Counted from the first letter of the stretch, positions 2,623-62,041 are shown. The stretch is 64,000 nucleotides of DNA from Minisyncoccota bacterium (GCA_035548315.1 DASZTF010000044.1:95484-159483), one strand, 5' to 3'. The notes: generated by a model from the sequence alone, not told the origin. Translations and numbers: made by a program.

Positions 2623-3054
2623 ATGATTCTCATGATCAACTGGGCAGCAGTCGTCGTGGCAGCGATTATCAATATGGTGCTCGGCATGCTCTGGTATGGG
2701 CCGCTCTTCGGTAAGTATTGGATGAGCGCCACCGGTGTGTCGCGCGATGCGATGCAGAACAATCCGTCTGCTAAGAGCGCGATGTACCGCTCGATGGTGA
2801 TCGCGTTCATCCTCGCGCTCGTGCAGAACTTCGTATTCGCACACATGATCGGCTTCACCTCGGGCCTCTCAGGCATCTCGGGAGTCCAGGACGGCCTCTG
2901 GCTCGGATTCTTCATCTGGCTCGGCTTCGTGCTCCCGGCGCACTCGGGCGTCACGCTCTGGGAAGGGAAGCCGCTCAAGCTCTGGGCCGTCTACTCGGGC
3001 TACTACCTGGTGCTCCTCCTCATCAACGGCGCGGTGCTTGGTGCGTGGATGTAG
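2623..3054 (+). CDS. DUF1761-family membrane protein
   Basis: WYGPLFGKYW motif followed by multiple TM helices, typical of DUF1761. Confidence 0.55.
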   Translation: MILMINWAAVVVAAIINMVLGMLWYGPLFGKYWMSATGVSRDAMQNNPSAKSAMYRSMVIAFILALVQNFVFAHMIGFTSGLSGISGVQDGLWLGFFIWLGFVLPAHSGVTLWEGKPLKLWAVYSGYYLVLLLINGAVLGAWM

Positions 3055-3091
3055 TCATATAAAAGCCAATCGCGCGTCTGGAGACGCGCGA

Positions 3092-3283
3092 TCATAGGCC
3101 AATGGCCAGCAAGATAAGGCTGAGCGCGAGCGTTGCCACCGCAAGCACCGAGAGGGTGTCGAACCCATCTCTACCAAAGCCGTAGTCGAAGTCCAGCTTG
3201 AAGCTGAAGTCATGCCTCATGAGGGCCCGGGTGAAGAACATAAGCACGCTCACAATGAACACTTTTAAGCTTAGTGGCAGCAT
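3092..3283 (-). CDS. small membrane protein (63 aa)
   Basis: Strong AAAGGAGG ribosome-binding site 6 nt before the ATG (MLPLSLK...). Two hydrophobic helices. A hairpin terminator (ATCGCGCGT...ACGCGCGAT at about 3066-3086) lies downstream. Confidence 0.45.
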   Translation of the reverse strand: MLPLSLKVFIVSVLMFFTRALMRHDFSFKLDFDYGFGRDGFDTLSVLAVATLALSLILLAIGL

Positions 3284-3336
3284 AGCCCGCCTCCTTTCGT
3301 CCGGGAGTATCACATAGAACGTGCACATGGGCAACC

Positions 3337-3368
3337 ATCGAATCACCGCATTAATGCGGTGATTCGAT
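3337..3368. promoter_or_regulatory. perfect 15-bp inverted repeat (ATCGAATCACCGCAT-ta-ATGCGGTGATTCGAT) over the -35 region of the island promoter
   Basis: The IR ends 15 bp before the TATACT box at 3384-3389. No T-run follows, so it is an operator rather than a terminator. Confidence 0.5.
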
Positions 3369-3395
3369 CGCTGCCAGGTGGGGTATACTGGGGCT

Positions 3396-3587
3396 ATGGC
3401 AGGGAGGAGGAAAGAAGGGCAGGAACTGATCCGCTCGCTCGTGAAGACGTCGGGCGGGAGGTCCTACAGCATCTCGATCCCCATAGAGGTAATCCGCGCC
3501 TTCCGCTGGGAGAAGCGCCAGAAGCTCGAGCTCTCCATCGACCCCAAGCGCAAAACCATCACCATCTCCGATTGGCCTAAAAAGTAA
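3396..3587 (+). CDS. AbrB/MazE/SpoVT-like small DNA-binding protein (putative controller of the island)
   Basis: 63 aa. SYSISIPIEVIRAFRWEKRQKLELSID resembles the swapped-hairpin AbrB fold. Leaderless (ATG 6 nt after TATACT). Stop codon is 2 nt before the methyltransferase start. Confidence 0.5.
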   Translation: MAGRRKEGQELIRSLVKTSGGRSYSISIPIEVIRAFRWEKRQKLELSIDPKRKTITISDWPKK

Positions 3588-3589
3588 TC

Positions 3590-4576
3590 ATGGCGAAGAC
3601 CTTACATGCTGCGAGGTCGCAGAAAAAGGACGAATTCTATACTCAACTTGCGGATATTGAGAATGAACTAAAGCACTACAAGGATCAGTTCCGAGGCAAG
3701 ACCGTATTTTGTAATTGTGATGATCCACGAGAAAGCAATTTCGTTAAATACTTCACAAACAACTTTGAGAAGCTAGGGCTTAAGAAATTAATAGCGACAC
3801 ACTACAAAGATGCGACTCTGTTTTCTCACGAACCGCCATATAAGTTGGAGTATGTTGGCGATAGAAATGGGAATCATTTGCCAGATCCGAGCGAACTCAT
3901 AACCAAGATGATAAGTGATGGTGATTTCCGTAGTGAAGAGTGCATCGACTTATTGCAGGAAGCAGACATTGTAGTTACCAATCCACCTTTCTCTCTTTTC
4001 AGAGAATACGTTGCTCAGCTTGGTAAGTACAATAAGAAATTTTTGATTATTGGCAACACAAACGCGATCACTTATAGGGAAATATTTGATCTAATCAAGG
4101 AAGACAAAATGCGCACAGGATATACGAATTTCAATATCGGCATGTTCTTTGTTGTACCCGATGACTGGGAACAGTTCCATCACATCGATAAGGATGGAAG
4201 AAAAATTGCACGAGTATCTACTTCATGTTGGTTCACTAACCTCGAAGTTGAACGACATAAAGAGAAAATAACACTCTATAAAAGGTATTCTCCGTCTGAG
4301 TACCCTAAGTATGATAATTATGATGCTATCGAAGTCTCGAAAGTATCAGAAATCCCGATGGACTATGAAGGTAATATGGGCGTGCCAATAACCTTTCTTG
4401 ACAAATTCAATCCAGAGCAGTTTAAGATCATTGGGAGTTTTAACGCAGGTGCTCACGGGGAAGAGCTTGGCGCTGTAAAAACCGAGACGCATACTAAAGG
4501 CAGAGTGATTATGTGGAATGGGCCCGTCGTAAATAAGCAGCCGTTATATAAGCGTATTATTGTTAAGCGGAAATAA
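3590..4576 (+). CDS. N6-adenine DNA methyltransferase, EcoRI-methylase family
   Basis: N-terminal KKDEFYTQ motif and catalytic TNPPF (motif IV) typical of M.EcoRI-like gamma-class methyltransferases. AT-rich codon usage unlike the flanks. Confidence 0.8.
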   Translation: MAKTLHAARSQKKDEFYTQLADIENELKHYKDQFRGKTVFCNCDDPRESNFVKYFTNNFEKLGLKKLIATHYKDATLFSHEPPYKLEYVGDRNGNHLPDPSELITKMISDGDFRSEECIDLLQEADIVVTNPPFSLFREYVAQLGKYNKKFLIIGNTNAITYREIFDLIKEDKMRTGYTNFNIGMFFVVPDDWEQFHHIDKDGRKIARVSTSCWFTNLEVERHKEKITLYKRYSPSEYPKYDNYDAIEVSKVSEIPMDYEGNMGVPITFLDKFNPEQFKIIGSFNAGAHGEELGAVKTETHTKGRVIMWNGPVVNKQPLYKRIIVKRK

Positions 4577-4577
4577 T

Positions 4578-5669
4578 ATGAAAATCGAACTACAGCGTAT
4601 TCCCATTCGCGAAGTGGTTGAAGGGTACAAAGATAGCGCTGAGGAGGGCGTCACTGCTTACGCAGGGAGGCTCGATATTCGGCCTAAATACCAACGTGAA
4701 TTTGTGTACAAGGGACATCAGCGTGACGCCGTCATCGAGACCGTCAAAAAAGGATTCCCCCTTAACGTTATGTACTGGGTGAAAACCGATGAGGGCGGGT
4801 ACGAAGTCTTGGATGGTCAACAGCGAACAATTAGCATTGGGCAGTACGTAAATGGCGACTTTTCGCTTAATGAAAGATACTTCCATAACCTAACTACGGA
4901 AGAGCAGGACCAGATTTTGAATTACGAATTGATGATTTATTTTTGTGAAGGCACTGATAAAGAGCGGCTTGACTGGTTCCGCATCATAAATATTGCTGGC
5001 GAGAAGCTCACCGAACAGGAACTGCGTAACGCCGTTTATACGGGGCCCTGGCTCTCAGATGCAAAGTTAAAATTTAGTAAGTCGAATTGCGCGGCTTATC
5101 TACTTGCGAATGATCATGGAAAGCTGGTTGAAGGCTCGCCAATTAGGCAGCAGTATCTGGAAACTGTGCTGTCCTGGATTAGCGATGAAAAGATTGAGGA
5201 TTATATGGCTCGACATCAGCACGACCCTAATGCCGATGATCTATGGGAATACTTTCAGGGTGTTATCGCATGGGCTCGTAGTACATTTCCGAATTATCGT
5301 CATGAAATGGCGAGTGTCGACTGGGGCAGCTTGTACAACGAATTCAAAGATGCAAAGTTAGATCCTAAGAAGCTAGAGATGGAGGTGAAGGAATTAATGC
5401 AGGACGAAGATGTCACCAAGAAGTCAGGTATATACCCATATCTTCTGACTAAGAAGGAGAAGCACCTGTCGATACGTGCATTTACCGATAAGATGAAGCG
5501 AGAAACTTATGAACGACAAGACGGTATTTGTCCGGTATGTAAGAAGCATTGGGATATTTTAGAAATGGAAGCAGATCACATAACGCCATGGCACGAAGGA
5601 GGTAAAACTACTGCCGACAACTGCCAAATGCTTTGCAAAGAGGATAATCGTAGGAAGTCAGGGAAGTAG
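4578..5669 (+). CDS. DUF262 (ParB/GmrSD-like NTP-binding, DGQQR motif) fused to a C-terminal HNH endonuclease
   Basis: LDGQQRTISIGQY (DGQQR signature) in the N-terminal half. C-terminal CPVCKKH...DHITPWHEGGKTTADNCQMLCKEDNRRK is a zinc-ribbon HNH motif. Start codon is 1 nt after the methyltransferase stop. Confidence 0.8.
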   Translation: MKIELQRIPIREVVEGYKDSAEEGVTAYAGRLDIRPKYQREFVYKGHQRDAVIETVKKGFPLNVMYWVKTDEGGYEVLDGQQRTISIGQYVNGDFSLNERYFHNLTTEEQDQILNYELMIYFCEGTDKERLDWFRIINIAGEKLTEQELRNAVYTGPWLSDAKLKFSKSNCAAYLLANDHGKLVEGSPIRQQYLETVLSWISDEKIEDYMARHQHDPNADDLWEYFQGVIAWARSTFPNYRHEMASVDWGSLYNEFKDAKLDPKKLEMEVKELMQDEDVTKKSGIYPYLLTKKEKHLSIRAFTDKMKRETYERQDGICPVCKKHWDILEMEADHITPWHEGGKTTADNCQMLCKEDNRRKSGK

Positions 5670-5673
5670 GTTT

Positions 5674-6024
5674 ATGGCGTCTAAGAAAACCATCTACGTC
5701 GCACATCCGATCTCGGGGGATTTGGAGGGGAACCAGAAGAAGGTGCTAGCCATTTGCGAAGAAATACATCGCCAGGGAGTTATTCCGGTTGCGCCGTACC
5801 TAGTCTCATTGCAGTACTTTAATGATGACATTCAAGAAGATAGGGAACTCGGGATAGAGGCGAGCCTTGAGCACTTCCGACGCGGATTTGTCGACGAGCT
5901 CTGGCTCTACGGGGACCGCATATCCAAGGGTATGTGGGGAGAAATACGCACGGCTCGTGAACACAACGTCCCTGTATTTGCTAAGACACCAGAAACCGAG
6001 CGAGATCTCGCAAACGAATCCTAG
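5674..6024 (+). CDS. nucleoside 2-deoxyribosyltransferase-like (DUF4406/DNPH1-like Rossmann) protein
   Basis: IYVAHPISGD N-terminal motif and a conserved Glu in GMWGEIRTARE, matching the catalytic Glu of the NDT superfamily. AT-rich like the island. Start codon is 4 nt after the previous stop. Confidence 0.5.
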   Translation: MASKKTIYVAHPISGDLEGNQKKVLAICEEIHRQGVIPVAPYLVSLQYFNDDIQEDRELGIEASLEHFRRGFVDELWLYGDRISKGMWGEIRTAREHNVPVFAKTPETERDLANES

Positions 6025-6028
6025 GATT

Positions 6029-6484
6029 ATGCAGTATTGGTTAATGAAGACGGAGCCGGAGGAGTTCTCGATCGATGACTTGAAACGCATCAAGGTCGAG
6101 CCGTGGTCGGGCGTGCGCAATTACGCCGCGCGCAATTATATGGTGCGGGATATGAAGGTGGGGGACATGGTGCTGTTCTACCACTCGAGCTGCGAGGTGC
6201 CGGGCGTGTATGGACTCGCGAAGGTCTCGCACCTTGCTGAGCCCGACGCCGCGCAGTTCGATAAGAAAAGTAAGTACTTTGATCCGAAGGCAAAGAAGGA
6301 GAAGCCGACCTGGTACGGCGTGCGAGTGCGGTTCGTACGCAAGCTCAAGAAGCCAGTTCCACTCGCGACGCTCAAGAACGAGAAGAAGCTGGCGAACATG
6401 TTCCTTTTCAAGAACGGGCGCCTGTCCGTGGGTCCGGTCACACCGGCGGAATACGCGCACATCGTGAAGCTCGCGGGTGCGTGA
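6029..6484 (+). CDS. EVE (PUA-like) domain protein
   Basis: MQYWLMKTEPEEFSIDDL...WSGVRNYAARNYMRDMKVGDMVLFYHS is the canonical EVE N-terminus. GC returns to the host level. Start codon is 4 nt after the NDT-like stop. Confidence 0.75.
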   Translation: MQYWLMKTEPEEFSIDDLKRIKVEPWSGVRNYAARNYMVRDMKVGDMVLFYHSSCEVPGVYGLAKVSHLAEPDAAQFDKKSKYFDPKAKKEKPTWYGVRVRFVRKLKKPVPLATLKNEKKLANMFLFKNGRLSVGPVTPAEYAHIVKLAGA

Positions 6485-6854
6485 TATGGCGATCGCAGTG
6501 ATAGAGCTGCCGCGGATGCGGCGGGGGACGAGACAATATAAGACGGCCGTGAAGGTGGCGCGCGAGCTCGCGACGGCGCGGGTGCAGCACTTCAATGCGC
6601 ACTATGGTGCGCGGCACACGAGCATCACGATACGCAAGCAGCGTACGCGGTGGGGGAGCGCGAGCACGCGCGGCACGCTGTCATTCAATTACCGGATCGT
6701 GCACCTGCCGCCGGAACTCGTGGACTACATCATCGTGCACGAGCTGTGCCACTTGATCGAGATGAATCATTCGACCCGATTCTGGGCGCGGGTAGCAGAG
6801 ACCGTCCCCGATTGGAAGGAACACCGGAAGGCGCTGCGCCGCTACCGGTTCTAA
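6477..6854 (+). CDS. YgjP/DUF45-family zinc metallohydrolase (short form)
   Basis: HELCHLIEMNHSTRFW is the DUF45/WLM HExxH-type signature. Overlaps the EVE stop by 8 nt. GTG or ATG start at 6477/6486. Confidence 0.5.
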   Translation: MRDMAIAVIELPRMRRGTRQYKTAVKVARELATARVQHFNAHYGARHTSITIRKQRTRWGSASTRGTLSFNYRIVHLPPELVDYIIVHELCHLIEMNHSTRFWARVAETVPDWKEHRKALRRYRF

Positions 6855-6862
6855 GGCGGAGA

Positions 6863-7291
6863 CTATTTACGACCCTTGAGGCGTGCTGCGAAGTGGAAGC
6901 TCGCATACGCGAGATACGCGGCGAATGCGACGCCGACCCAGGAGAGCCAGAGCGGCACCGTGAGGTCCCCCACGATGAGCTCCCAGCCGAACACCAGTCG
7001 CATCGCGTGTATCACGGCGACGAAGAGGAAAATGAGTCCTGCGATGGTGACGAGCATGCGCTCAGATGGTGAGTGGATCGGGCTCTTCATGTGCCAGCCG
7101 TAGTACACCAGCATGAGGAGCAGCGCGACATTGAACACCAGCGCCGGGCCGACGCTGTCGGCGGTAAACGGCGTACCCGCAAGGATCACCGGAGTGAGTC
7201 CGACGGCGCTGAACCACAGCACGAACGCGAGCTTCGCCGCGACCATGCCCGAAAGGAACTTACATGCTTCCCGGAGTGTGTGATGGGTCAT
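6863..7291 (-). CDS. hypothetical membrane protein (4 TM)
   Basis: ORF with an internal start at MTHHTLRE. Hydrophobic helices. No family recognised. Confidence 0.4.
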   Translation of the reverse strand: MTHHTLREACKFLSGMVAAKLAFVLWFSAVGLTPVILAGTPFTADSVGPALVFNVALLLMLVYYGWHMKSPIHSPSERMLVTIAGLIFLFVAVIHAMRLVFGWELIVGDLTVPLWLSWVGVAFAAYLAYASFHFAARLKGRK

Positions 7292-7395: not shown

Positions 7396-8142
7396 TTACA
7401 CAAGCATCGCCTTGATCACGAGCGCGGTTTCTTCGGGGTTCGCGACTTGCTGCGTTTTGATGCCGGTTTCTTTCACGACATCATCGTTCCCGCCCGGATA
7501 GAGCTGATCGCCGATGTAGAGCATATCAGCAATGGGAATGTTCAGATGCTCGGAAAGTCTGCGGATGCCGAATGCTTTATTCACGCCGTGCTTGGTCACA
7601 TCGATGGAGGTCGACCCGCCGCGCTTCACATCGTACTGCGGGAGGAGCGGGGCGATCGCGTTACGCAGCTGCTCGCGCTTGGTCTGGTCCGGATCCCATG
7701 CGAGCTTCTCCTCGACCGGGGCTTCCTGTCCGAAGACCGACAGTGTGACCTCTGAGCCGCGGAACTCGATGCGGTCGCCGTGCGACGGGGTAGAAAAGTC
7801 CACGAGCCCGGTCTTTTCCGCACCCTCCATAAGTGCGTCGCGGATAGTGAGGGCATCTTCCTCGGTCAGCGTTTCTATATACACGGGCGACCACTCGCCG
7901 AGTGCGTACTCGTAGAGCGCTGCTCCCGATGTGGGAAGAAGGTATAGATTCGTAAATGCAGCGTCGCTCGGCAGCTGGTCGACGAGCTGCTTTTTGAATT
8001 GCTCGAGTTTTCCGCCGCCCACGAGCGCGACTTTTGCTTTCCGCAGGAGCGCGGTGAGCGCGATCGCCATGTCGACTTCGAGCGGCGCTTTGCTCACGGT
8101 CAGGGTGTTGTCGATATCAAAGCAGATGAGCTTGGGAATCAT
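7396..8142 (-). CDS. eukaryotic-type phosphomannomutase (HAD-IIB, PF03332-like)
   Basis: CFDIDNTLT (DxDxT) motif. Along the full length it resembles human PMM2 (VALVGGG, RGSEVTLSVFGQE, GGSTSIDV, YIGDQLYPGGNDD). Overlaps the upstream GH130 gene stop by 4 nt. Confidence 0.7.
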   Translation of the reverse strand: MIPKLICFDIDNTLTVSKAPLEVDMAIALTALLRKAKVALVGGGKLEQFKKQLVDQLPSDAAFTNLYLLPTSGAALYEYALGEWSPVYIETLTEEDALTIRDALMEGAEKTGLVDFSTPSHGDRIEFRGSEVTLSVFGQEAPVEEKLAWDPDQTKREQLRNAIAPLLPQYDVKRGGSTSIDVTKHGVNKAFGIRRLSEHLNIPIADMLYIGDQLYPGGNDDVVKETGIKTQQVANPEETALVIKAMLV

Positions 8143-10073
8143 GGCGTCAGGTGGGGGAGTAGTTTGCGCACCAGCGTGGAAAGCGAGAGGGTTGCCACGC
8201 CGAGCGCCGTGTCGGCACCGCCGTAGTAGATCGCGAGGGTGTCGCCGGAGAGCGTCATGCCGTCCGAGAATACCACGTTCCCCACGACGCCGTCCTTTTC
8301 CCAGGTCTCCACCGGCTCGAGGATGGGGAGCGTGGTGCGTGCCAGCACGTTCGTGCAGGTCTCTGCATCGAGTAGTACTGCGCCGAGCCGGTAGACTTTA
8401 TCCGCGCCGATCGCGTGATAGATGAGGAGCCAGCCCTCGGGGATGCGCATCGGGGGAGCAGCGCAACCGACTTTCTCGTGATCCCACATCCCCGGCCGCG
8501 GGCCGATAAGCTCGATGCAACGATTCACTGGTCGCGCGAACGCGAGGTCGTCGAACACGTCCGCGCAGATATTGGGATCGATCCGATGGATCACCATGTA
8601 TTTCCCGCCGACTTTCCCGGAGACAAGACATACGTCTTTATCGGTGACGCCGTCTGGAGTAAGGAGGCGCGGGAGCGCCCAGCGGTCAAACCGCTTCGCG
8701 AGGAAGTCGCTCACCGGGATAGAACTCACTGCGCCGCGAGGGTCGCGGACGCCGTCGTAGGCGGTGTAGGTGAGGTACAGGGTGTCGCCTATAAGCGTGA
8801 GACGCGGATCCTCGCAGCCGGAATTGCCATTCGGATCGCCCTGCTTTTGCTCGAATGGCTCGCGCGGCACATACGCAGGATTGTGCAAGCGCTCGACGAC
8901 GCGGAAGTCTTTATCCACGCGTGCGTACCCCATGACCGAGGTGTTGTCGGCACCCATCGCGCGGTAGAGGAGGTGCGTCTCACCATTCAATTCCACCGCA
9001 GCGGCATTGAGTACCGCGCGTGATTCCCAGGCGTGGTCGGCGATCGGTTCGAGGATGGGATTTTTAGCGTACCGCTTTACGAAATTAAGCCGGTACTGTT
9101 CGTCCATGGCGTCGAAGAGATCGGGGAGGAAAAGAGACCCCATCCCACACACGGTATCGGCAGCGCCGTAGAAAATATCGAGCGTATCTTCGCGCAGCAC
9201 TGCACCCGAAGGGAATACGATATTGGGGACGGCGCCGTAGCGCTCGTAGGATTCTTTGGGCGACATGAACGACCCCGGTGTGCGCATCACGACCTTTTGC
9301 GGATCGTGCGCGTCGAGTACGAGCGCTTCCACGCCAAAGAGGCGGTTGTGCTCGTCGTAGTAATTGCGGATATGGGAGTACACCAGCAGCCAGCCCTTTT
9401 CCGTGCGCAGCGGCGCGGCGCCGACCTCCACATGCTCGCTATCCTGGCGGCGCAGTTCAGGGAGCGCGTGATCGGCGAGGCGCTCGTGCCAGCGCTGCCA
9501 GAACTCCGGATTCCAAAAGTCTTCAATGTTCTTCGCGCGCGCTATAGCGATCGTCGGGCGCGGGTACTCCGGCGTGTAATCCGTGTGGCAGGTGAGGAGC
9601 AGCACCACGTCGCCACCGATGCGTTCGGGGAACAGTGTCGCGGCTTTTGCATTGAACGGCGTCACCACGTGTTTCTCGGTAAGTGCGGTGGGTGACGCAC
9701 CGACCGCCGCACCGACTTTAATATTGCTCGGGCCGAACGGGAACCCGCCGAGCGCCGTGTAGAACACGTACCATTTTCCTTCGAAGAATGTGGCGCGCGG
9801 ATCCTCGCACCCATACGCTTCCCACGGGTGCTCGGGGACGATCACTTGCGTACGCTCACCCACGACGCCATCGGCGAGCGTGGCGTGGCCGATCGTGGAG
9901 AGTCCGGCGTACGGCGTGAGGAGTACGTCCGGCCGCGCGGTAGCACGGTAGAAGAGGTGTGTGGTATCGCCCTCGCGCACCGCAGAGGGGTTGAATGTCG
10001 CAAGCGCTTCCCATGCACGCTCGCGCACGGGCGCGATGATCGGATTTTGAGGAGAGCGGGTGAGGTAGAACAT
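8139..10073 (-). CDS. tandem two-module GH130 beta-mannoside phosphorylase (DUF377 x2)
   Basis: Two consecutive GH130-like modules, each with NPxxV, LFYRA and CEDPRxT motifs, in a single 644-aa polypeptide. Confidence 0.8.
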   Translation of the reverse strand: MFYLTRSPQNPIIAPVRERAWEALATFNPSAVREGDTTHLFYRATARPDVLLTPYAGLSTIGHATLADGVVGERTQVIVPEHPWEAYGCEDPRATFFEGKWYVFYTALGGFPFGPSNIKVGAAVGASPTALTEKHVVTPFNAKAATLFPERIGGDVVLLLTCHTDYTPEYPRPTIAIARAKNIEDFWNPEFWQRWHERLADHALPELRRQDSEHVEVGAAPLRTEKGWLLVYSHIRNYYDEHNRLFGVEALVLDAHDPQKVVMRTPGSFMSPKESYERYGAVPNIVFPSGAVLREDTLDIFYGAADTVCGMGSLFLPDLFDAMDEQYRLNFVKRYAKNPILEPIADHAWESRAVLNAAAVELNGETHLLYRAMGADNTSVMGYARVDKDFRVVERLHNPAYVPREPFEQKQGDPNGNSGCEDPRLTLIGDTLYLTYTAYDGVRDPRGAVSSIPVSDFLAKRFDRWALPRLLTPDGVTDKDVCLVSGKVGGKYMVIHRIDPNICADVFDDLAFARPVNRCIELIGPRPGMWDHEKVGCAAPPMRIPEGWLLIYHAIGADKVYRLGAVLLDAETCTNVLARTTLPILEPVETWEKDGVVGNVVFSDGMTLSGDTLAIYYGGADTALGVATLSLSTLVRKLLPHLTP

Positions 10074-10076
10074 GCG

Positions 10077-11279
10077 CTACGCGGGGCGGGGCAAGAGACT
10101 CATGACGCGAATCGGCAGCGCCGGCTTCTTGCGACCCATGAGTTCTGCAAGGAACACCTCGAGTGGGGCAGCAGCAGCACATACGCGCATGTCGCCGCCG
10201 CCGTAGTACACGATGAGCATGCCGTCCTTCACAACGGCACCGGTCGCATAGATCACGCCAGGCTTGCCGTCGTTCTCGTAGGGCATATCGGGCTCGAGGA
10301 TGGGGTAAGGCGAGCGCGCGATGACCTTGGTGATGTCGTCCTTATCAAGAAGAACCGCGCCGATTTTATATTTATGCGGCTCGCGGGCATCATTCGCATG
10401 GTAGAGCACGAGCCAGCCGTATACGGTTTCGATGGGTGGCGGGCCCGATCCGCGTACGCGGCTGTCCCACACGTTCTCGTCGAACTCGTCGCGGAAACGC
10501 GCATCGCTCTTCACGTAGTCGGCGGGTTCGGTGTCGAGCGAGTCGAGGTATTCGATCAAGACGCGGCGGCGCGTGCCCTTCCTAAATCCGTGGAGCACGG
10601 CGTACGTACCATTAATTTTCCGCGGGAAGAGCACCCAGTTCTTCTGGACTTCACCGGGCGCGGAGAGGAAGACTGGTTTGGTCCAATTCCAGTGGTTCAT
10701 TTCCATGTCGTCGAGCGCGATCGAGGTGACGCCGATCCGGAGCGAGTCCCAATCGCTGAATGCCGAGAAGGAGAGGTACAGGCGGTCGTCCACGACGACC
10801 GCGCGAGGATCTTCCGTACCCGCCCACGTGCCGCCCGACTGCATCAATTTCTCGTAGAGCGCAGGATGGTAGCGCTTGCGGAGTTCTGCGTGCTGCGGCG
10901 CGCCGACACCGGTGAGCGCGAACACGGGCATCGGCAGGCGCGTATCAAAATGGAACCCATCTTCGCTTGAGGCATAGCCCACGCGCGAGACGCCGTCCAT
11001 GCCGATCGCGCGATAGAAAAGGTGCACGCGTCCTCGTGCATAGACCGCAGCCGGATTCATGACGCCGCCGGCTTCCCAGAACTTCCCGGTGGGCTCGAGC
11101 ACGGGATTATCATCGGCGCGCGCGAGCGCGAGCGGCCGGTCTAGGATGAAATCGCGGAGGCCGCGCATCGCGCGGCGCGAATGCTTCGAGTTCACAATGT
11201 GGAATGCGCCTTGGAGGAAAAAGAGCGTCGCGGCGATCGCTCCGGTGAGAAAGAGAAAGAGGATGACAATGTTACTCAT
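10077..11279 (-). CDS. membrane-anchored GH130 family glycoside phosphorylase
   Basis: N-terminal TM helix followed by a GH130 module (NPAAV, LFYRAIG, EDPRAV, YGGGD). Confidence 0.8.
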   Translation of the reverse strand: MSNIVILFLFLTGAIAATLFFLQGAFHIVNSKHSRRAMRGLRDFILDRPLALARADDNPVLEPTGKFWEAGGVMNPAAVYARGRVHLFYRAIGMDGVSRVGYASSEDGFHFDTRLPMPVFALTGVGAPQHAELRKRYHPALYEKLMQSGGTWAGTEDPRAVVVDDRLYLSFSAFSDWDSLRIGVTSIALDDMEMNHWNWTKPVFLSAPGEVQKNWVLFPRKINGTYAVLHGFRKGTRRRVLIEYLDSLDTEPADYVKSDARFRDEFDENVWDSRVRGSGPPPIETVYGWLVLYHANDAREPHKYKIGAVLLDKDDITKVIARSPYPILEPDMPYENDGKPGVIYATGAVVKDGMLIVYYGGGDMRVCAAAAPLEVFLAELMGRKKPALPIRVMSLLPRPA

Positions 11280-60849: not shown

Positions 60850-61411
60850 TGTTGCATCAGTAAAATAATCTCGCTCAAATACGGCCCACTTTGTGGATAT
60901 CTCGGATGCCCGAGATCGAGGGCAGGGGAGGGCCCTCTCTTGGCCTTCCCGATCTCGGCTATTTACCCGCCCCAGCCTGCTCCGGGAAGGGCTTGCAAGA
61001 TGCCTACGTGCGATAGAAATACCCCATTGAAAGCATTCACAGAGCCTTACAGAGCAGAGTAGAGGCGTAGTATCCACCCGACTACAATCTGGTCCTGTAC
61101 AGAAGGCCTTCTAAGGGTTCTCTCTATAATAAGTACGCAAAAGATATATTGTGCGCACTTTATATATAAACTCCCCCACGTACGTAGAGGCCTAGAAACG
61201 GCCGGATCTGGGAATTCTTCAAATCGCTCCTCTGCCCTCCTGGCGTCGGCGCAAAACTTTTTGGCGGTTGGCATTAACTCTCTACTGCTCAGGAATCTAC
61301 GGATCTCTAAAAAGCAGATTTCAGCCACTTCCCCGGAAATCAAAAATGACCGGGGAAGTGTCCGGTCATTTTCTGGCCTTTATTAGGGAAGTGACTTCCC
61401 CGCCGCTTTTT

Positions 61412-62041
61412 CTAGCCTCCGTACTTCGCAAGTTCGATCTTCAGTTCGGAGCGGTAGTCATTAACCAGCTCATGAAGTGTGTAGGTGCTTACCTTGGATA
61501 GATCGATAGCGCGCCAGTAGCTGTAAGCTGAACGAGGTGGTCGTCCAAAGAGTGACTTGCCGTCGAGTTTTGTCGAGTTATTGAGAATATCCAGAACTGC
61601 ATCGTCTGTATAAGTGTCGAGCTGAGTATCGATTTGGTCTAGCTTAGCAAGTTCTACGCGTATCGCCGTGGCCTGCGAATCGTCTTCAGCATCCTGGCTG
61701 CCAGTTGGTTGGCTTTGAGTTACTGAACAGGAATTCGCATCCTTTTGCGCCTGCGCCAACTGACTCCTCAATGAAGTATTTTCCTTGTTCAATGAATTAA
61801 TTTCGGCCTGCAGAGATGCAATCTCAGTTTTGCTATCGGGATTGGCGTCAGCTTCTTTGGCTGTTGCGGAGTCTGAGGTGGTGCTGATAGTGCTTGCTGG
61901 TGCCGAGTCGGTTTGCTCAGCTGACATTTCATAAGCATTCTCGGAATGGAACCAAGTAAGAGGATTCCACCAAGCAGCGAAAGTAACTTGCGGGACTATA
62001 AATACTCCAAGTGCAAGAAGAGGAAGCGCGAGTTTCTTCAT
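61412..62041 (-). CDS. secreted coiled-coil hypothetical protein
   Basis: Signal peptide MKKLALPLLALGVFIVPQVTFA and a coiled coil (LQAEINSLNKENTSLRSQLAQAQKD). A hairpin terminator (CACTTCCCCGG...CCGGGGAAGTG) lies downstream. Confidence 0.55.
   Translation of the reverse strand: MKKLALPLLALGVFIVPQVTFAAWWNPLTWFHSENAYEMSAEQTDSAPASTISTTSDSATAKEADANPDSKTEIASLQAEINSLNKENTSLRSQLAQAQKDANSCSVTQSQPTGSQDAEDDSQATAIRVELAKLDQIDTQLDTYTDDAVLDILNNSTKLDGKSLFGRPPRSAYSYWRAIDLSKVSTYTLHELVNDYRSELKIELAKYGG

Follow-up and report, generated by a model that had tools for sequence, protein, structure and literature searches.

Organization of the locus

This analysis concerns a group of tightly packed, co-oriented genes near the start of a 64,000-nt stretch of DNA from a Minisyncoccota bacterium (GCA_035548315.1, DASZTF010000044.1:95484-159483; the whole stretch is hereafter called the window). 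A DNA methyltransferase gene of the EcoRI family (M) and a DUF262-HNH nuclease gene (R) lie here between a small AbrB-like gene and a gene whose product has the fold of nucleoside 2'-deoxyribosyltransferases (NDT). The gene order is DUF1761, a short minus-strand membrane-protein gene, AbrB-like, M, R, NDT-like, EVE and YgjP (Table 1). A first-pass annotation of the sequence had read the four genes from AbrB-like to NDT-like as one candidate defence module of a new kind that looked horizontally acquired. The four open reading frames (ORFs) that it described were recovered at the same coordinates, separated by 2, 1 and 4 nt, with a further 4 nt between NDT-like and EVE. Its domain assignments were all correct by profile search, namely MazE/AbrB (at a borderline score), EcoRI_methylase, DUF262 plus HNH, NDT-like and EVE.

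Table 1. Genes and regulatory features of the block, in window coordinates
Feature	Coordinates	Strand	Description
Palindrome, operator candidate	3330-3375		23-nt arms, 91% complementary; perfect 16+16 core at 3337-3368
TATACT, -10-like hexamer	3384-3389	+	6 nt before the ATG at 3396
AbrB-like gene	3396-3587	+	63 aa, SpoVT-AbrB/MazE-like
EcoRI-family N6-adenine DNA methyltransferase (M)	3590-4576	+	328 aa, NPPF motif in translation
DUF262 (ParB-like, DGQQR) + zinc-ribbon HNH nuclease (R)	4578-5669	+	363 aa
NDT-fold gene (DUF7768)	5674-6024	+	116 aa
EVE-domain gene	6029-6484	+	PF01878, 6.6e-53
YgjP-like gene	from 6486		1 nt after EVE

Close packing had been taken as a sign that these genes form a module. 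This argument was rejected, since equally tight pairs are common in this genome: by a crude gene call, 12 of the 35 same-strand neighbour pairs in the window overlap or lie no more than 4 nt apart. Base composition is more informative and divides the block. A GC trough of 0.38-0.47 runs over it and is the sole stretch below 0.47 in the 64 kb, as the first-pass annotation had expected. The AT-rich codon usage that it attributed to all four genes holds for M, R and NDT-like (GC content at third codon positions, GC3, of 0.43, 0.49 and 0.58, respectively) but not for the AbrB-like gene, whose GC3 of 0.83 is host-like, the flanking genes ranging from 0.81 to 0.85 and EVE standing at 0.81. Because M and R differ from the flanks in GC3 and lie in the only deep GC trough, the pair appears to be of foreign origin; horizontal acquisition is thus upheld for the pair and not for the AbrB-like gene. 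A second, milder dip (0.483 in a 1-kb window) is found at 61001-62000.

A methyltransferase-nuclease pair of a known restriction-modification family

Both proteins of the pair match, end to end, the type II restriction-modification (R-M) profiles of PADLOC, which are derived from REBASE. M matches MTase_II (PDLC03297; 5.2e-114, residues 1-327 on profile positions 6-327 of 332) as well as the Pfam family EcoRI_methylase (PF13651; 1.5e-127, profile positions 2-345 of 345), and R matches REase_II (PDLC03418; 4.5e-142, residues 1-363 on profile positions 1-372 of 372). Within R, GmrSD_N/DUF262 (6e-17) covers residues 34-154, and the C-terminal half is a Cys4 HNH domain (PF01844; 3.6e-11) in which no match to DUF1524 was found. 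The DGQQR motif, the Cys4 zinc site and the DH...N...N residues can be read in the translation, and the HNH region matches 4h9d and the HNH of a group II intron maturase. Other PADLOC matches of R are far weaker, the best being NsnA (4.5e-26), with a weak match to PD-T4-2_A. A sequence-only search of the PDB with M returned nothing significant. The pair therefore has the parts of a type II system as these profiles describe it: a methyltransferase with NPPF and an S-adenosylmethionine-dependent fold, followed after 1 nt by a separate, adjoining and co-inherited nuclease.

Homologues of R number more than 8000 in the protein collection; the top 120 of those listed share about 80% identity with it and belong mostly to many lineages of Patescibacteria. 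An identical sequence is on record from a Candidatus Paceibacterota MAG, and this assigns the host. A scan of one genome per species gave 245 R-M loci, of which the best 80 (L001-L080) were compared with the window. M lies directly upstream of R in 78 of the 80 (tblastn), the two exceptions having little upstream sequence; the AbrB-like, NDT-like and EVE genes occur in none of them (tblastn), and DNA homology to the window is limited to 3596-5676 (blastn). The same pair is carried by plasmids of Aeromonas, Macrococcoides, Chryseobacterium, Sulfitobacter, Variovorax, Gordonia, Enterococcus and others, spanning Proteobacteria, Firmicutes, Actinobacteria and Bacteroidota, where a "DUF262 domain-containing protein" is annotated beside an "adenine-specific methyltransferase EcoRI family protein". 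Because M adjoins R almost throughout, the three neighbours never accompany them and homology ends with the pair, we are confident that the M-R pair is the mobile unit here and that it belongs to a known R-M family. Its mobility across phyla and plasmids and its AT-richness relative to the host are shared with the type II systems behind these profiles; it differs from the other members in standing 2 nt behind a host AbrB-like gene, the others being alone or behind a gene of the XRE-type helix-turn-helix (HTH) class. The full-length type II matches, the number of homologues, the constant adjacency and the plasmid copies speak against a novel, non-classical module, and the synteny comparison does not sustain the grouping of the four genes.

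When the 1062 flanking ORFs of the 80 R-M loci were clustered, the only recurrent family was an XRE-type HTH protein, found in 18 loci and encoded upstream of M on the same strand in 15 (e.g., L044:6507-7283); nothing recurred downstream of the pair. Some of the HTH copies are long (258 aa) and look like conventional controllers or HTH-antitoxin-type regulators. Two further observations were made on the pair itself. In the 72 R-M loci with a long M match, R is 76-82% identical to that of the window and M 46-76% (median 52%), with M below 55% in 48 of the 72; the usual pattern is that M is the more conserved partner. This suggests that M subtypes may have been swapped against a constant R, a pattern that partly reflects selection on R identity. 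In two independent loci the pair is followed by the PADLOC candidate PDC-M43A/B (receiver-like plus HATPase_c-like; L056:3670-5309 and L087:6587-8130), with E values reaching 1e-32 and 1e-48. As a regular partner this candidate was rejected, being confined to L056 and L087 and missing from the other 79 R-M loci and from the window.

A variable slot between DUF1761 and YgjP

Three Logan assemblies (L089-L091) come from a close relative of the window's genome, with 85-91% nucleotide identity in the common segments. Positions 1-292 of L090 align to window 3308-3587 and carry the same palindrome and AbrB-like gene. In place of the window's pair, L090 then has an N6_N4 methyltransferase (PADLOC MTase_II, 7e-97) and a MutH-like nuclease, followed by an NDT-like gene with 91% nucleotide and 97% amino acid identity to the window's copy. 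In L089 and L090 a minus-strand gene of 159 aa occupies the place of EVE, after which YgjP and a PMM-like gene follow as in the window. L056 represents a more distant relative (DUF1761 62% and YgjP 63% identical) and has, between these two genes, a low-GC island with the same M-R pair (R 77% identical) and then PDC-M43A/B. This island lacks the AbrB-like, NDT-like and EVE genes.

Because three related genomes hold three different contents at this place, the interval between DUF1761 and YgjP in this Candidatus Paceibacterota genome is a variable defence slot in which the M-R pair is an interchangeable occupant. The EVE gene does begin 4 nt after the block, as the first-pass annotation stated; its linkage to the block as a reader of modified bases was not borne out, given its host-like GC3, its replacement in L089 and L090 and its absence from L056.

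The AbrB-like gene and its contexts

The AbrB-like protein matches PF04014 (MazE_antitoxin) with an E value of 1.8e-5, at 25.1 bits against a cutoff of 24.7. The AF2 monomer model (pLDDT 71) has a beta-alpha-beta-beta core, and its top 12 Foldseek matches are all members of the SpoVT-AbrB superfamily, yet with E values of 0.4-3.6; Sso7c4, MazE, AbrB and SpoVT are the best among them. A profile search of PDB sequences gave nothing significant. The family comprises 28 homologue clusters with identities of 62-77%, and its named members are Paceibacterota or Kaiserbacteria.

Eleven independent contexts of this gene were examined, the upstream side over 4 kb. A DNA-methyltransferase cassette stands directly downstream on the same strand in seven of the 11 and upstream in none. 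These are the window and L090 together with five loci of differing content. Behind the AbrB-like gene, L087 carries an EcoRI-family methyltransferase (46% identical), a DUF262-HNH protein (36%), PDC-M43A/B and a DpnI-like gene, and L176 an EcoRI-family methyltransferase, a DUF262-HNH protein and Mrr. In L085 two unknown genes precede an N6_N4 methyltransferase and a ResIII helicase; in L083 two unknown genes precede an N6_N4 methyltransferase, a possible PD-(D/E)XK protein and a C5 methyltransferase; and L174 has an HTH-Peptidase_M78 protein, an N6_N4 methyltransferase and DUF4145. The remaining four contexts (L081, L177, L180 and L182) have housekeeping or unknown genes and no R-M cassette in this position.

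In the window and five other loci, whose cargo is unrelated, the next start codon falls 0-4 nt past the AbrB-like stop codon. Where the two were compared (window, L083, L085 and L087), the AbrB-like gene has a GC3 of 0.75-0.83 and the gene starting 0-3 nt later one of 0.38-0.44. The AbrB-like gene is a resident with host composition, in our reading vertically inherited and probably self-repressing, and we read its 3' end as a preferred landing site for defence cassettes.

Small features on either side of the gene were also recorded. A small ORF located 2-4 nt past the AbrB-like stop codon opens in the same way (MRIK...) in L174 (4195-4290) and in L180 (directly after 1687). In L180 this ORF reads MRIKDAPKYERPREKL, an opening that we take to resemble the N-terminus of RadC-like proteins, and it is possibly a remnant of earlier cargo. 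RhuM-family genes lie directly upstream of the AbrB-like gene in L083 (3570-3938) and L180 (379-1431), so the upstream side may be variable or related to mobile elements as well.

The palindrome and proposed promoter upstream of the AbrB-like gene

The perfect inverted repeat that the first-pass annotation placed at the head of the block is longer than the 15 bp claimed, having a 16+16 core (ATCGAATCACCGCATT followed by AATGCGGTGATTCGAT) within 23-nt arms. It occurs once in the window and had no match in 100 shuffles, and it sits upstream of the AbrB-like gene in a divergent intergenic region of 112 nt. The core in L090 differs at the last base only, in a segment that is otherwise 85% identical. 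A related inverted repeat occupies the same position in seven more AbrB-like loci, and across the nine aligned loci, which include the "empty" L081 and L177, the half-sites resemble AATyACnGs. All nine have a TAnnCT box next to the inverted repeat, with the ATG 5-7 nt past the box; in the window and L090 an additional 16-28 nt comes between repeat and box.

The spacing of TATACT to the ATG fits a leaderless or near-leaderless transcript, the promoter being proposed from this conservation. The first-pass claim of a leaderless TATACT promoter thus gains a hexamer conserved in orthologous loci, and lacks a match in the consensus scan. In a sigma-70 and terminator scan of 2900-7000 the number of sites was not above that in shuffles, and the plus strand within 3396-3590 contained no sigma-70-like site.

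On the minus strand, a short hydrophobic ORF (window 3092-3346) runs divergently from the AbrB-like gene and probably has its true start at the ATG at 3283, which is preceded by AGGAGG 7 nt upstream. Lying in the divergent intergenic region, the palindrome could control this ORF and the AbrB-like gene alike. As RNA, it is predicted to form a hairpin of -22.8 kcal/mol (centroid structure). Elsewhere in the window, two large adjoining ORFs on the minus strand (8139-11279; 644 and 400 aa) appear akin by eye and are unrelated to the R-M finding.

The AbrB-like protein can be compared with two classes of small regulators. Controller (C) proteins of R-M systems, such as C.PvuII, C.AhdI and C.Esp1396I, are XRE-type HTH proteins that travel with the R-M system and usually precede R. 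The AbrB-like protein would resemble them as a small, presumably DNA-binding protein whose gene heads the likely operon, with a candidate palindromic operator at its proposed promoter, an arrangement expected to bring R-M expression under feedback control. It differs in that its modelled fold is the AbrB/MazE swapped hairpin and not an XRE-type HTH, in its host codon usage, in preceding M, and in not travelling with the R-M system (0/80 loci, and 4/11 contexts without a cassette). The earlier proposal of a controller-like AbrB-fold protein acting on the palindrome is therefore kept as regards the conserved upstream element and the cassette found downstream in 7/11 contexts, and given up where it implies dedication to R-M. 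The literature searches turned up no AbrB-fold protein described as an R-M controller. The locus also recalls the operons headed by MazE-, VapB- and PrlF-type antitoxins: a short gene for an AbrB-fold protein comes first, a palindrome accompanies it, here as a candidate for autoregulation, and the second gene begins a few nucleotides past its stop codon. In contrast to these operons, the downstream partner here is variable (R-M pairs, a type III-like methyltransferase with a helicase, or unknown small proteins) with no cognate toxin, and no C-terminal toxin-binding tail is evident in the 63-aa protein.

The NDT-like gene

The NDT-like protein matches DUF7768 (PF24963; 1e-23) and phrog_355, labelled "nucleoside 2-deoxyribosyltransferase" (9e-17). 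The top Foldseek matches of its AF2 model (pLDDT 90.3) are bacterial and protozoan nucleoside 2'-deoxyribosyltransferases and DNPH1/Rcl (6evs, 8pqt, 2a0k and DNPH1 entries), at a probability of 0.98-1.00 and TM scores of 0.50-0.69. It differs from these enzymes in its length (116 aa against about 140-160), at 13-18% identity. H11, R57, E75 and E90 are invariant across 43 homologues, and in the model E90 opens the helix after strand 75-78, where the NDT nucleophile is expected by secondary structure; the equivalence of this residue, and of its catalytic role, to that of NDTs is presumed. Sequence searches of the PDB gave nothing significant and reach no solved NDT member. An hhalign comparison with a Lactobacillus NDT (probability 0.3%) was uninformative on catalytic residues, and a profile match to the ryanodine-receptor RyR repeat (E 0.036, around DE(L/G)W(L/T)YG(D/E)) was judged probably due to chance. 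The literature on DUF7768 and DUF4406 yielded incidental mentions of DUF4406 and none of DUF7768, and PADLOC has no model for the protein.

Neighbourhoods of the gene were collected from 80 metagenomic loci (64 after dereplication) and are mixed. A Pfam scan of 133 immediate neighbours found RE_endonuc (5), N6_N4_Mtase (4), ResIII (3), dCTP deaminase (4) and ThyX (3), and in L093 the gene adjoins aminoacyl-tRNA synthetases. L092 and L101 have an operon-like order of NDT, M and MutH, and L100 and L157 have arrangements of M, DUF262-HNH and NDT. The copies in L089-L091 are 97% identical, and the R-M pair that adjoins the gene in L090 is unrelated to that of the window. Together with the mixed neighbours found elsewhere, this unchanged copy beside a different pair argues against the first-pass view of the NDT-like protein as a dedicated effector. 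The GC3 of 0.58 is common to the window and L090 copies and lies near that of the L090 methyltransferase (0.56), which suggests that the gene arrived with an earlier cassette and was kept when the pair was exchanged. Its function, in what is a nucleotide-auxotrophic bacterium, is most likely the salvage or clean-up of deoxynucleosides or deoxynucleoside monophosphates (dNMPs); any particular tie to adenine methylation is speculative.

Two loci deserve mention for their layout. L092 (1-6933), from a low-GC genome of the candidate phyla radiation (CPR), groups the NDT-like gene with an N6_N4 methyltransferase, a MutH-like nuclease, a HEPN RiboL-PSP protein and a protein of 111 aa; a Rep-like gene and a serine recombinase lie alongside. 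The gene order there (NDT, M, MutH) is a circular permutation of that in L090 (M, MutH, NDT) and hints at a circular or tandem intermediate. On contig Ga0172379_10006598 (L153 plus L087), an AbrB-headed R-M cassette and an NDT-like gene lie about 7 kb apart on opposite strands. Given this distance, the AbrB-like and NDT-like genes that frame the pair in the window are not generally adjacent to each other.

Proposed explanation and alternatives

The explanation that we favour, and consider likely as a whole, is that a mobile type II-style M-R pair occupies a variable slot headed by a resident AbrB-like regulator. The EcoRI-family enzyme would methylate adenine in a short site and so mark host DNA, and the DUF262 (ParB-like)-HNH nuclease would cut DNA that lacks this mark. 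The AbrB-like protein would repress its own promoter by binding the palindrome that lies immediately upstream of it, and the cassette would be co-transcribed from this self-limited promoter in the order regulator, methyltransferase, nuclease. Sharing such a promoter would keep expression low and place methylation before restriction. Transcription from the AbrB-like promoter seems the most likely arrangement because the junction to M is 2 nt long and 3396-3590 offers neither room for a promoter nor a promoter-like site; we lean, if only slightly, towards control of the cassette by that promoter. The NDT-like gene would be an older foreign gene that stayed while the R-M pair beside it was exchanged; its product, most likely an enzyme whose gene moves with the same kind of variable regions, would not be a subunit of the system.

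Several points weigh against this explanation or parts of it. Palindrome avoidance was computed as Markov observed/expected ratios of words of 4, 5 and 6 nt, over 738 kb of loci carrying the system and over the host portion of the window. No recognition site stood out, the lowest values (ACGT 0.66 and GGCC 0.75) coming from loci pooled from many hosts. The searchable literature, including that on R-M systems of CPR bacteria, yielded no biochemically characterised DUF262-HNH enzyme paired with an EcoRI-family methyltransferase, so that the designation "type II" is derived from profile labels and the adjacent methyltransferase, and the DUF262 domain suggests a dependence on nucleoside triphosphates (NTPs) or an extra sensing step that a plain type II system does not explain. 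As to the regulator, the SpoVT-AbrB fold modelled for the 63-aa protein is consistent with the matches but borderline and not strong. The absence of an R-M cassette from four of the 11 contexts implies that the AbrB-like gene is not a dedicated R-M controller, and its proposed promoter was not flagged by the sigma-70 consensus scan, the promoters of these bacteria being poorly known. With respect to the NDT-like gene, a DNA methyltransferase lies within the available flank (up to about 3.7 kb) in 12 of the 64 groups (about 19%), or in 9 of the 39 with at least 3 kb of flank, and the two genes are sometimes only 23-80 nt apart. The association with R-M regions looks to be above chance in a comparison made without a matched control, and a functional tie of the gene to R-M systems may exist.

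Three other explanations were weighed against the occupied slot. That the four genes, with or without EVE, make up one new integrated defence system with the NDT-like protein as effector or base-exchange enzyme is largely refuted by synteny, and we now hold it to be very unlikely. Tight packing and common orientation would favour such a system, but gaps of 1-4 nt are commonplace here; the foreign composition of the NDT-like gene (GC3 0.58) and the methyltransferases near it in 12/64 loci, including L092, L101, L100 and L157, would do so too, but its neighbours are as often dCTP deaminase or ThyX, its copy in L090 stays 97% identical beside an unrelated R-M pair, and no PADLOC model includes it. 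None of the 80 M-R loci holds the NDT-like, AbrB-like or EVE gene, and homology to them stops at the borders of M and R. A second alternative is that cassettes simply land beside the AbrB-like gene, which would be a resident with no tie to them (a small regulator or an orphan protein of the antitoxin type), and that the R-M pair has a promoter of its own and escapes control by the palindrome. We think this improbable, though much less so than an integrated system. It would account for the host-like GC3 of the gene, for the four of 11 contexts without an R-M cassette (the upstream element being still present in the two that were aligned, L081 and L177) and for the other members of the R-M family, which have an XRE-type HTH gene upstream (about 15/80) or nothing. 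It does not readily account for the 2-nt junction with M, which recurs as junctions of 0-4 nt in five other loci with unrelated cargo, for the lack of a plus-strand promoter-like site within 3396-3590, or for the direction of the association, the methyltransferase cassette being downstream in 7/11 contexts and upstream in 0/11.

The last alternative takes R to be a GmrSD-like modification-dependent (type IV) nuclease, with the methyltransferase independent or an orphan, and is in our view the least likely of all. R does share with GmrSD, BrxU and SspE an N-terminal DUF262/ParB-like module with DGQQR and a C-terminal His-Me finger nuclease, and its weak PADLOC matches to NsnA and PD-T4-2_A point the same way. 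The full-length REase_II match is nevertheless far stronger than that to NsnA (4.5e-142 against 4.5e-26), its nuclease half carries a classical Cys4 zinc-ribbon HNH (PF01844) where GmrSD, BrxU and SspE have DUF1524, and at 363 aa the protein is much shorter than those enzymes. R also differs from them in being obligately paired with a methyltransferase, M being directly upstream in 78/80 loci, which would imply action on unmodified DNA; a nuclease dependent on N6-methyladenine (m6A) beside an m6A methyltransferase would be self-toxic unless the specificities differ.

Implications

The result has corrective value, in that what looked like a defence system of four genes and of a new kind is a standard and very widespread R-M cassette of two genes, of which the neighbours form no part. 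The occupied slot may nevertheless be part of something broader. In the Paceibacterota and Kaiserbacteria, promoter-less R-M or defence cassettes may be repeatedly exchanged behind the stop codon of the AbrB-like gene and come under its control. If true, this would make the gene a non-HTH, host-owned functional analogue of R-M controllers, somewhat reminiscent of promoter capture in integrons. Separately, the NDT-fold protein (DUF7768) may be a true accessory of adenine-methylating R-M cassettes in these nucleotide-auxotrophic bacteria, for example in clearing N6-methyl-deoxyadenosine nucleotides from degraded DNA, and the DUF262-HNH family may be NTP-gated and hence no plain type II enzyme. 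Taken jointly, these three proposals (an AbrB landing pad, an NDT-like R-M accessory and an NTP-gated DUF262-HNH nuclease) are tentative, and we would sooner expect them not to hold together.

The DUF262-HNH and EcoRI-family pair is abundant, and its specificity and any need for NTP make it a useful biochemical target. That a host AbrB-fold regulator heads the slot in seven of 11 contexts suggests that R-M expression may be placed under a resident non-HTH repressor. The defence-island dynamics of ultra-small CPR genomes have been little studied, and the window, L090 and L056 together offer a near-isogenic example of cassette swapping at a fixed slot in such genomes; the swap slot with an AbrB-fold gene at its head is a modestly new observation on these dynamics.

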